Source: Raillietiella orientalis (lineage: Eukaryota). From it: 64,000 bases of DNA. Under the pieces are notes generated by a model. It had not been told where the DNA came from, ran no database searches, and worked only from the letters and a program-made list of their open reading frames with translations. Each line of letters begins with the position of its first letter. Position 1 is the stretch's first letter. This document shows, one piece after another, positions 21,595 through 44,318 of the stretch. The stretch lies in NCBI GenBank assembly GCA_036172245.1, contig JAYWIR010000073.1:248001-312000 (forward strand). The letters are read 5' to 3'. A program made the translations under genes and the position numbers.

Positions 21595-23112
21595 TTTGTC
21601 GAGTATTCCTGCACGCAGCACTCCACAAGTCACCAAGTACCACTTTCTGCGTTCAATTTAAAAGAAAATCTTTGCCTATTGGTCGAGGGGCAATGGAGTC
21701 CGGTGAGCTGTCCACTCGCTTGGGGCCATCCGCCACCTTCTTCAACATGCAGCGGTAACTCAAGGGGGACGCTCTACCTGATCTCCGTTTCCCTGTCGAT
21801 GACTGCTCGGACGATGGTCGTCGCGAGCTCTGCTCTGTTCCGCATCGGTTTGCCCTTCTTATCGCGTTGCTCGTAGCAAAGAGGGCAACGGTGGTCCGTC
21901 CCAAGAGATTGTATGGCGCTGCCCTTCCCTCCAGTCACTCCCGCCCGCATCTCCATCTTCGTTTTCGCTCTGCACGCGGGACCCCCGCCGGACAATCCTG
22001 GCGCAGAGCCGGCCAACGCGAAGTCGGGATTCCCTGGCTGCGCATGCCTGGCAGTGCTCGTCCCGGCTGCCACCTGTTCAACCGTTCAGTCTGGAGCCAC
22101 CTGGCCTTCCCCCGTGGCCAATCCATCGGGAGGTCATCATCCCGAGCTAGTCCGCGGGTCGGTCTCCTCCTCCACCTCCTCGTTGTGCCCGCCGATAACA
22201 GGCCTTCATTTTCAGGACCCGTGGCTACTGGCAGCCTCCTCGAGTGCATCACCTTCTCTCCGTTTACCCTTCATTTCATCGCGGATGTCAGCTCCGACGA
22301 CCCTTCCAGAGCTCGTGGGTCCTGTGGCTGCATCTTCCCATCACTTCCGCACTCTGTGGCAACAACTACCGCTGTTCTCCGTTGCCAATCCTCATTTCCT
22401 GGCCTCTGAATCATCCACTTTCAAGTCTCTCCCGCGACCCTCATGAAGTGAGGAATACCATGGTCAGTTGCCTTTTGCCACGATTCCTTGCTTGTAGGCA
22501 CTATCTTCAGTTGGTGACCGCTCCACCAGTGCCTGTTTTCTTCTCCACGTTCTCCGAATCTCCACGTTTGCCAATTGGAGCTGACATCAGTCCTTTCGAG
22601 TTGTTGATCAGCCTCGAGGGGACTCTGTGCACCGCGTACTGATCTTTGGAAGCCCCGGAGGCAACGCGAGAGACGTTTTCAAGCGCCAATTCCTGCGCGA
22701 TGCCCTCACGCCGTCCGCGTCCGCAGCAACACCTTCCTGTCCACGTGGCTGGACCGCGGCTGCATGGAGCAGCGCCAGAAAAGGCCAGAACGACAGGGGA
22801 GCCATCTGTTTTGCCGTCCTTACCTTGAAAACATCGTCAAGATGGACCCAATTGGAAGTCTCGGAACAAAACTCTCCGACGACCTTACAAGGATGCAGAG
22901 GACGCCCTCCAGCACGCAGTGATCCCTCCCCGACCCCTCAGCCCCATCACTTTCTGACTGCATGTTTTTTGCCTTTTTTATTCTATTCTTTTTGTTTGTC
23001 TCCCCTGCCGTGGCGCCTGTCGCCGGTCTGCGCTCCGGTTGCCGGCAGGCTTTTTGCGTGGTTGTAAGCCACGTGGTGGGATCAAACGCCCTTCCACGTG
23101 TTCATTTTTGAG
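21595..23112 (+). mobile_element. Block A, left copy: decayed 3' half of an L1/Tx1-like element (post-RT region, C-terminus, 3' UTR). Inverted near-identical copy at 36126-37645
   Basis: IFGSPGGNARDVFKRQFLRDAL...WSSARKGQNDRGAICFAVLTLKTSSRW is homologous to the 30486..31199 ORF. Pyrimidine-rich 3' UTR with stem-loops ending ttcattttt. Identical ORFs appear on opposite strands (22507..22689 and 36550..36732). Confidence 0.85.
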
Positions 23113-42128: not shown

Positions 42129-44318
42129 CCGATACGGGACGGCGGAGAAGGCAGCGGGGAGAGAAGGGAAGGGATGGAGGGGAACTGGACAGACTCCTCG
42201 AGCAGGGCAGGAGTCGCCGATAGCCGGCGGCGATGACCGACCTAGCAGCAGGATGCGGCGGACGACCTCGGGACGACGGACGTGGCCATCGACGGAGAGC
42301 GCGTAACGGTGGGGTCACTCGGGAAAATTTTCGGACGGGGTGTGCGCGGAAACAAAGAGCGGACACCGAGGTTTCCTAGCAACGCGGATGTGAAGGAGAA
42401 AGCCATCTCTGCAAGGACTCGCGCGTCGGCGTGCGCGCGCGGGGAAGGATGCATGCGAGCTAGGCGACGCCGCGAAACCGAGTGGGCAGGCGCGATCCCC
42501 GGCGTTTCGGTTATCCTCGGGCGCGGAGGCGGACGCCAGCTAGCGGTGCGCCGCATCCCGTCTCCGGTCCGCACCGAGTCGGTCAACGCGAATGCCCTGC
42601 GGCATCGGTCGCGCGCGTCGAGTCGCCACCGCAGGCGGAGGTTAGAGCGACGGCGGGGGGACGGCCGGTTCTCTGGGAACGGAGCGGCCGCCGCACGAGG
42701 AAGCAACGGAGGGAAGGAGGGCGGGAAAAGGAGACCACGCGAGGGCGCCACCGCTACCGACTGCTCGCGCCTCTTCCCGTGCGGTTGAAGGTGCGCACCC
42801 GCATCGTCCCCTAGCAACGGCACCGGAAGCGGGAGCCGCCAAGCGACGTCCGCGTCCAGCGCGATTCGCGGTCCGAAGACGTCCTGACCTGACCCCGGCT
42901 GACCCTCCGAAGAAGCAGCTGCCCTGTTCGGCCAACCGGTCCCGGCTGCTGCTGCCTTCCCGACGACCTGGCAACGCGAACGCCATCTTCTCCAGCGGCT
43001 GCACGGCGAACTCGCCACAAGACGGGTAGCAAGGGCGGAAGAGGGTCTCGCATCGCTGCTCGGCACCGCCGTGCTCTCGGTGGTAAGCGGTTTAGCGTGC
43101 ACTGACGTTAGGCAGGCGTCCGCACGAGCCGCCCTCTGTCACAGTCTCTCCAAAGGTCGCCCCTGCGCACCCTCCCTTCGCAGCGCGACACACCCGCCGG
43201 CACGCGGAGGAGGCGCTGGTGCCATTCCTCGGAAGCGGCTCTGCTGGCGCCGCCCGAGGCACATGCCGTCCTTACGGCCACTTCGCTACCCGAATCGACG
43301 GTTGGGTTTTGCTTTCGACCAGCGCGATGTCTCCGTCGGTGGCTGAAGACGCTCCGTGCCAAACCCCGTCGTCAGTGGCAACGCGCTGCGCCTCGCTCCA
43401 TCGACGGGACCTTCGTTTTCTGTTTTTCACGGGAAACCGGTGTTGACCTCCAGAGGCGGAGAGGTCGTCAATGCTGGCATCACTCCCCACCCCACTCCCT
43501 TGGTGTTCTTTCTTTTTCCGGCTCGACAGGCACTCGAGGGCAACGCATTGCCTGCGGTGATCGTCGAAAGAGACTTCCTAGTGCATCTCCAGGAGCTGCG
43601 TCCCTCTGGGTGGGGTACCCACCCTGGCTGGCCACGACGGTAGTCTGCCCCTCGCCCGCGTACGATTTTGCGCTGCGTCCCGTAGCCAGGCAACGCGGTT
43701 GAGGGGCTCGAAAGTGATCCGGCCGTTCTCGATCGCCAAGCGGCCCGTAACGATGCACGCCGGAATGACCGCGCAAGGGCCAAAATGACGCTCCTGCGCA
43801 GCTGGCTCTTCGATCGCTCGAGGGAGGGTGCACCCGCTCTTCGCCCTCCAGGCTAGGCAGTTGCCGTTCCGTTGCAGCCGACGTCAGGAAGCGGAGACTA
43901 CACGGGATGTAACGAGGATGGCTCGAGGGAACGCGGGCCCATTCTTTGCAGTGGAGGGCACTCTCTGCCCGAATAGTCGCATCCGCTTTCAGATCAAACC
44001 GCGAAAGGGTCAGGGAGCGAGGTGGCCCGGAATTGCCGTGCGTGGCACTCCGATCGGACGAGAGGAAGGTGCCACTGCTGGACGAGCTCCGAGTTCGGCA
44101 TTAAAGAATGACGCATCGCTGCTTTCTCGCTCATTACGACGCCAATCCTGTCCTTCCCTGGGAGAGATTGAGGATCGTCACCGGCGACCGCCTCGGTGAC
44201 CACGCACCAGCAACGCAAGCAAGTCGGGGCGTGTGGAATTTCAGCGGCTTCTTTGCCTTCTGCTCTTCCGCTAGGACGAGCAGCCCTTCCAGCCGGATCA
44301 GCAACGCTCCGCCATCTC
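40578..44318. repeat. Block B, right arm of the inverted duplication
   Basis: Reverse complement of 23110-26850. Confidence 0.97.

Follow-up and report, generated by a model that had tools for sequence, protein, structure and literature searches.

A stretch of 64,000 nucleotides of the Raillietiella orientalis genome (NCBI GenBank assembly GCA_036172245.1, contig JAYWIR010000073.1, positions 248,001 to 312,000 of the forward strand; hereafter the window) contains a large coding exon and, on the opposite strand, a near-identical but incomplete counterpart of its 5' part, which stands in permuted order next to a counterpart of the DNA lying downstream of the exon. A whole-window repeat scan and a self-BLAST search revealed two inverted pairs of sequences, blocks A and B (Table 1). 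Block B at 23110–26855 (+) matches 44318–40574 (−) with an identity of 99.87% over 3746 nt (4 mismatches, 1 gap), and block A at 21573–23112 (+) matches 37667–36126 (−) with an identity of 98.38% over 1542 nt (23 mismatches, 2 gaps); matches of such length cannot be due to chance. The left plus strand reads A' (21573–23112) and then B' (23110–27337), whereas the right minus strand reads B (44318–40512), C (40511–37668) and A (37667–36126), and no second copy of C (37668–40511, 2844 nt) was found within the window. This permuted order, A-B on the left against B-C-A on the right, agrees with a preliminary description of the same DNA, but the block limits given there require correction: block A starts at about 21573/37667 and not at 21595/37645, with the similarity fading back to ~21545, and block B ends at 27337/40512 and not at 26850/40578, the homology extending beyond a left-arm tandem duplication and the last 66 nt being 91% identical. 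The overall GC content of the window is 0.53 and the observed/expected CpG ratio is 0.95, indicating no depletion, which speaks against vertebrate DNA and, taken with the intronless ankyrin gene and decayed reverse-transcriptase fragments described below, suits a non-vertebrate eukaryote; the Rfam and tRNA scans of the window each returned no matches.

Table 1. Blocks, coding features and junctions of the permuted inverted duplication, with positions in the window.
Feature	Position	Strand	Description
Left block A'	21573–23112	+	Non-coding; putative copy of right A; 98.4% identity; divergent patches separated by perfect runs of 411 and 759 nt
GAG microhomology	23110–23112	+	At the novel A'|B' junction; left-specific variants at 23098 and 23124, each 12 nt away
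Left block B', first part	23110–26849	+	4 mismatches in 3740 nt against 44318–40579, at 23124, 23136, 24234 and 25782
Tandem duplication	26429–27271	+	Perfect, 2 x 421 bp, left arm only; units 26429–26849 and 26850–27270/1; one shared G at the join
Divergent outer edge of B'	27272–27337	+	6 mismatches in 66 nt, the first at 27273; homology ends at 27338
Read-through tail of the truncated copy	27338–27457	+	40 codons, then TAG (27455–27457); AATAAA-like run at ~27507
Spacer between the arms	27338–36125		Unique; contains an AT-rich island (~29500–30300) and a weak reverse-transcriptase zinc-finger remnant (30393–31196)
Right block A	36126–37667	−	Non-coding; begins ~1.9 kb downstream of the stop codon of the putative parent gene
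Block C	37668–40511	−	Single copy; last 300 codons of the exon, stop codon (39612–39614) and downstream non-coding DNA
Large terminal coding exon	39612–41777	−	Frame of 721 codons between two stops (P0001), with codon 26 as its first Met; strong codon periodicity; predicted all-helical orphan product
Right block B	40512–44318	−	Codons 1–422 of the large exon, preceded by a possible small exon and intron and by ~2 kb of GC-rich upstream DNA that lacks periodicity
Possible upstream exon	41931–42314	−	Same frame; GC content of codon positions 1/2/3 = 0.70/0.57/0.80; weaker periodicity; tentative

The very strong codon periodicity of the 721-codon frame on the right clearly indicates a real coding exon. 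The frame passes the B|C border at codon 422 and continues unbroken to the stop codon in C; its GC content at second codon positions (GC2) is ~0.40–0.42 and that at third positions (GC3) amounts to 0.89 within B and 0.71 within C, so the GC3 of this orphan gene is very high and drops toward the 3' end. No codon periodicity was detected in the remaining ~2 kb of B or anywhere in A. Searches with the translated product, P0001, gave no homologues among proteins of 396–1262 aa and none among 1.84 billion representatives; in the ESM Atlas, large helical scaffold proteins scored best, at 0.88, under the lead level of 0.9, and the AlphaFold single-sequence model consists entirely of helices and is of poor quality, with a mean pLDDT of 38. 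An assignment of the exon product to AAA_25, the one Pfam match among the scanned ORFs of A, B and C, was considered and discarded, since the match reached 19.3 bits and the cut-off is 27.

On the left, the frame departs from homology at 27338 and is followed by the short read-through tail listed in Table 1. The possibility that an ancient, diverged paralogue extends on the left beyond 27337 was examined and found no support: a gap-free in-frame comparison of 27338–27448 with P0001 residues 422–459 scores 32, the mean of shuffled sequences being 33 and 115 of 200 shuffles reaching 32; a tblastn search with the 301 C-terminal residues of P0001, at E values up to 20, missed the left continuation; and the residual periodicity at 27350–27800 can be read equally well on an open frame of the minus strand. 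Since the exon is seamless from B into C on the right and the left frame is broken, the right locus is taken as the parent, and the left one would be a truncated, frameshifted partial copy, probably a truncated pseudogene. The opposite direction was rejected because it would need a 2.8-kb insertion that extended the frame by 300 well-behaved codons by chance.

The junction between the left blocks has the sequence ...TTCATTTTT GAG ATGGCGGAG..., while on the right, block A terminates with ...TTCATTTTTGAG and passes into unrelated sequence, and block B opens with GAGATGGCGGAG, preceded likewise by unrelated sequence. The end of the B-C-A segment (36126) is thereby fused to its start (44318) through exactly three common nucleotides, the shared GAG that had been noticed previously. 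No similarity beyond GAG was found on either side between the flanks neighbouring right A and right B; by our simple formula for random joining, a microhomology of at least 3 nt would arise with a chance of ~0.05. As left-specific variants lie 12 nt to each side of the junction, A' and B' are distinct second copies, both of which end exactly at the junction.

These variants also bear on the possibility that the structure is, in whole or in part, an assembly artefact produced by chimeric reads, by abutted overlapping contigs or by polishing with reads of the other arm. The structure is known from the assembly alone, and the arms hardly differ inside B (4 mismatches in 3740 nt), which would suit such an origin; the window, however, is free of N, and arm-distinguishing variants within 12 nt on both sides of the junction mean that A and B each have a second copy ending there. 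Fold-back artefacts are usually palindromes that have no spacer, unlike the permuted blocks described here, which are 8.8 kb apart. An artefactual origin is unlikely; the tandem duplication is considered below.

The flanks of the blocks, designated u for the DNA left of A', v for that right of B' and x for that right of 44318, and block C were compared with each other by word-7 blastn and tblastx. No similarity among them was revealed, except for one 104-nt match of 73% identity in direct orientation (19662–19762 to 45240–45343), which belongs to a small dispersed repeat also present at 45031–45318 and 53111–53396. Sequence from 44319 onward, which the preliminary description had proposed to look for upstream of left A, is consequently represented there in the blastn and tblastx comparisons by this dispersed repeat and nothing else. 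The same searches found no trace of C in the left flanks, so 2844 nt are lacking from the left copy. Because u, v, x and C are dissimilar, the left composite has just three junctions, and one insertion of A'-B' between u and v would be the simplest history, requiring the fewest junctions. An isomer arising from recombination between the B arms (nonallelic homologous recombination; u-A'-B-C-A-...-B'(−)-x) was considered as the ancestral state and rejected: it needs more junctions, among them two independent breakpoints at the same nucleotide. The dispersed repeat itself is ~290 nt long, with two full copies (45031–45318 and 53111–53396) that are 94.8% alike and in direct orientation, and the partial 73% copy left of A'; it may be a short non-autonomous element.

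Block A ends at an identical nucleotide in both copies, and decayed reverse-transcriptase (RT) remnants are present elsewhere in the window (11770–12507 and 30393–31196). Both observations would suit the suggestion that A is a mobile element, e.g., the 3' end of a long interspersed nuclear element (LINE), which landed in two separate insertions, one next to left B and the other 2.8 kb downstream of right B, or which transduced B, with B forming a separate inverted duplication; the other properties of A make this highly improbable. Pfam scans found no families in the 58 open reading frames (ORFs) of 18065–27577, which includes left A and left B, and, in two scans of 12 and 47 ORFs, no RT, endonuclease or other transposon families in the ORFs of right A, C and B. 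Block A, whose scanned ORFs gave no Pfam match, has neither codon periodicity nor a poly-A, A-rich or simple-repeat tail nor terminal repeats, and no target-site duplication was seen flanking it, although its eroded 5' end could mask one. The window contains only two copies of A, none being like the DNA downstream of either RT remnant. Moreover, the 5' end of A is the same in both copies, unlike the ends produced by independent 5' truncations; the insertion point would have to match the boundary of the B duplication to the nucleotide; and transduction presupposes a source in which A is followed by B, that is, the very junction that needs explanation. The LINE alternative put forward earlier, with the junction at a LINE 3' end, accordingly gains no support from these comparisons.

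As for the RT remnants as such, the one at 11770–12507 (+) corresponds to RVT_1 (E = 4e-16 (4.3e-16); the single match among 122 ORFs), and the other, at 30393–31196 (+), gave a weak sub-threshold match to zf-RVT (E = 0.007). Neither of them resembles block A, B or C. The spacer island just upstream of the zf-RVT remnant is sharply AT-rich, with a GC content of 0.18–0.37 in 180-nt windows.

The differences between the arms are concentrated at the edges of the blocks. In block A, 18 of the 25 differences are no more than 110 nt away from a block edge, compared with 3.6 expected (P = 1e-10), and the remaining seven form one island at 22086–22248, with the two long perfect runs between; in block B, the same zone holds eight of the ten differences (0.5 expected, P = 2e-9), and the interior consists of perfect runs of 1097, 1547 and 1490 nt. 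When the four edges are pooled, 26 of 300 positions differ (8.7%, Jukes–Cantor distance 0.092); the two inner edges, which adjoin each other on the left, make up a single island of 129 nt with 13 differences, centred on the junction. A highly identical middle part and diverged edges, where conversion is ineffective, have been described for block duplications that undergo interlocus gene conversion (Osada and Innan 2008, PMC2588116). In the partner arm, 2.8 kb separates A from B, and a conversion tract therefore cannot cross the left junction. The clustering of differences at the edges, together with the near-perfect interiors, points to an old duplication, with neutral divergence of the order of 9%, whose interiors were probably homogenised by arm-to-arm gene conversion. 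Later homogenisation had already been suggested for this locus, there for two insertions of a LINE family; the edge-clustered mismatches support the homogenisation, without a LINE. Block B has a GC content of 0.66, compared with 0.51 for C and 0.53 for x, and the difference in GC3 between the two parts of the exon is significant (0.89 against 0.71, P = 7e-10), with the drop occurring ~80 codons past the B|C border.

The left arm alone contains a perfect tandem duplication, the units of which are 100% identical over 421 nt. As 421 = 3 x 140 + 1, the reading frame of the copied exon is shifted, and the match to P0001 is split over two frames. With its last nucleotide at 27271 and the first mismatch following at 27273, the duplication ends within 2 nt of the switch from perfect identity to 9% divergence; by our own estimate, unrelated events would coincide so closely within the 4.2-kb block in roughly 0.1–0.2% of cases. 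The tandem junction has a microhomology of 1 nt; according to the simple formula, chance would give at least 1 nt in 44% of joins. The 421-bp duplication was probably made by the last conversion event. During this repair, each end of a left-arm break would have been extended with the right arm as template, the right-hand end beginning synthesis at 27271; the extended ends would have overlapped by 421 nt, and end joining through a single G may have replaced their in-register annealing. The complete identity of the units is also what unmerged contig overlaps would look like, but an arbitrary contig overlap does not predict that the end of the duplication matches the identity transition.

The same junctions can be read as the trace of a recent single replicative event, i.e., template switching of the MMBIR (break-induced replication mediated by microhomology) or FoSTeS (stalling of forks and switching of templates) type, which would have built the whole left composite, the differences being errors of low-fidelity synthesis near the switches. 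The path would lead from the left fork to the opposite strand at 37667, along A to 36126, back by 8.2 kb to 44318 through GAG, along B to 40579, back by 421 nt from 40579 to 40999 through G, then to 40512, and so to the return. Such a path accounts for several features at once: the legible junctions have a microhomology of 1–3 nt (3 nt at A'|B' and 1 nt at the tandem junction, the outer junctions being eroded), each jump goes backward along a single template strand, the 421-bp duplication is just one more switch, and most differences between the arms are near junctions; in addition, end joining and MMBIR are noted to be indistinguishable by breakpoint features (PMC7450558). The distribution of differences nevertheless makes template switching quite unlikely. 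No cluster of differences exists at the 26849/26850 switch, the cluster of seven in the middle of A (22086–22248) is far from any junction, and A and B would have reached 98.4% and 99.9% identity, respectively, despite originating in a single event. Reported error rates of MMBIR-type synthesis are far below 9–12%, and differences at this level over 66–105 nt greatly exceed them.

Considering these data, we give slightly better than even standing to one old insertion of a head-to-tail junction fragment followed by arm-to-arm conversion. The right locus would originally have been an ordinary single-copy region on the minus strand, composed of B (upstream and 5' coding DNA), C (3' coding and downstream DNA) and A (further downstream). 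A single old event would then have placed a fragment with the A-end/B-start fusion ~8.8 kb away in inverted orientation, the fragment spanning the head-to-tail junction of the 8.2-kb B-C-A segment with most or all of C missing; the source of this junction may have been a circularised copy, a transient tandem duplication or polymerase template switching. Afterwards, the inverted copies would have exchanged sequence by gene conversion, so that the interiors of A and B stayed almost identical, while 30–100 nt at each block edge, where the partner blocks are not contiguous, would have escaped the conversion tracts and kept ~9% divergence. A more specific version, in which an 8.2-kb extrachromosomal circle (B-C-A closed at GAG) was partly copied back beside its source and then maintained by arm-to-arm conversion, is possible but rather doubtful. 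The preliminary description had proposed re-insertion of a circle or tandem-array junction; the permuted order and the 3-nt microhomology fit this proposal, but such an origin is inseparable from template switching.

Several points weigh against an old insertion with subsequent conversion. Biased conversion predicts GC enrichment of the converted block, but the drop in GC3 misses the B|C border by ~80 codons, and the support from base composition is weak. The estimate of age stands on 300 nt of edge sequence, and polishing with multi-mapped reads may erase interior differences and spare the edges, which would exaggerate the contrast between them. In the model proposed for the tandem duplication, strand invasion would have to rely on an end of 66 nt with 91% identity, which is short for the purpose, and abutting two overlapping contigs would likewise yield a perfect tandem duplication. 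Finally, a single assembled sequence is the source of all three features, namely the junction, the 421-bp duplication and the close identity of the arms.

Some further features of the window lie outside the duplicated blocks. An intronless frame of 680 codons at 16106–18148 (+) encodes an ankyrin-repeat protein (Ank, E = 4e-64), the C-terminus of which gave a sub-threshold match to PRANC (22 bits against a cut-off of 25.8); no relatives of its 200 C-terminal residues were found. Its N-terminus is built of 78-nt tandem repeats (16138–16453) that are 88–91% alike. A 140-nt direct repeat with an identity of 83% is present at 9770–9907 and 15179–15317.

The organisation of the locus may have consequences for the gene and for its annotation. 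Recombination between the 4.2-kb arms, which are 99.9% identical, could invert the intervening 13-kb segment, and, given read-through transcription, the copy of the gene's 5' 4.2 kb, being inverted and convergent, could yield a long hairpin RNA directed against the parent gene. Within 23 kb, the locus combines a microhomology fusion junction, apparent block-wise concerted evolution with unconverted edges and a probable repair scar at the end of a tract; small permuted duplications resolved to the nucleotide are the main sequence evidence for circles or head-to-tail junctions feeding back into chromosomes. For annotation, the near-identical left copy should be recognised as a broken partial gene, high identity need not mean young age, and nothing found links a "LINE 3' end" label to block A.

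As a permuted and inverted duplication of part of a gene, the structure belongs to a known kind of rearrangement and is very unlikely to be a mobile element, and several described systems resemble it. Flipped block order together with mere microhomology at the fusion is the signature proposed by Chicote et al. (2020, PMC7450558) for circular DNA intermediates of human segmental duplications, and the same source cites the cattle colour-sidedness translocations. The duplications ascribed there to circular intermediates (human cSDPs) share with the present locus the flipped order, the microhomology of a few nucleotides, the absence of flanking homology, a derivative that is not in tandem with the parent and an intact parent. 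They are, however, tens to hundreds of kb in size, compared to 5.3 kb of an 8.2-kb unit here; the present derivative is only 8.8 kb away and inverted, its insertion junctions are eroded, and the putative circle is read from sequence alone. In addition, 2.84 kb (C) is missing here, unlike in a circle re-inserted after opening at one point. Germline insertions derived from extrachromosomal circular DNA (eccDNA) in humans, called by split, non-colinear mapping (Zhang et al. 2026, bioRxiv, 10.64898/2026.09.03.749254), are similar in their permuted split mapping to a unique nearby source on the same chromosome and in their microhomology, but 79 of the 80 intrachromosomal insertions reported there retain the orientation of the source, whereas the present copy is inverted and represents a fixed or assembled state, not a polymorphism. 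The rearrangements attributed to MMBIR/FoSTeS, including those considered in PMC7450558, are comparable in having several junctions with 1–3 nt of microhomology (legible here at two of them), an inverted nearby copy and an extra small duplication; in contrast to them, the 9–12% edge divergence, the mid-block island and the lack of differences at the 421-bp junction fit age and conversion better. With respect to conversion, the closest parallels are the gene-conversion-degeneration model (Osada and Innan 2008, PMC2588116) and converted palindromes, which the present locus resembles in its interiors of >99.8% identity, its more diverged edges and, loosely, its GC-richer converted block. The present locus differs from converted palindromes in the permuted order of its blocks, so that conversion must work on two separate blocks, and in the GC3 shift lying off the block border; conversion is deduced here from a comparison of the two arms, not of orthologues. 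The palindromes described for sex chromosomes (PMC8600007, PMC8981503) have larger arms that are kept alike by arm-to-arm conversion, and the arms of 1.5 and 4.2 kb described here would represent a small counterpart of them.

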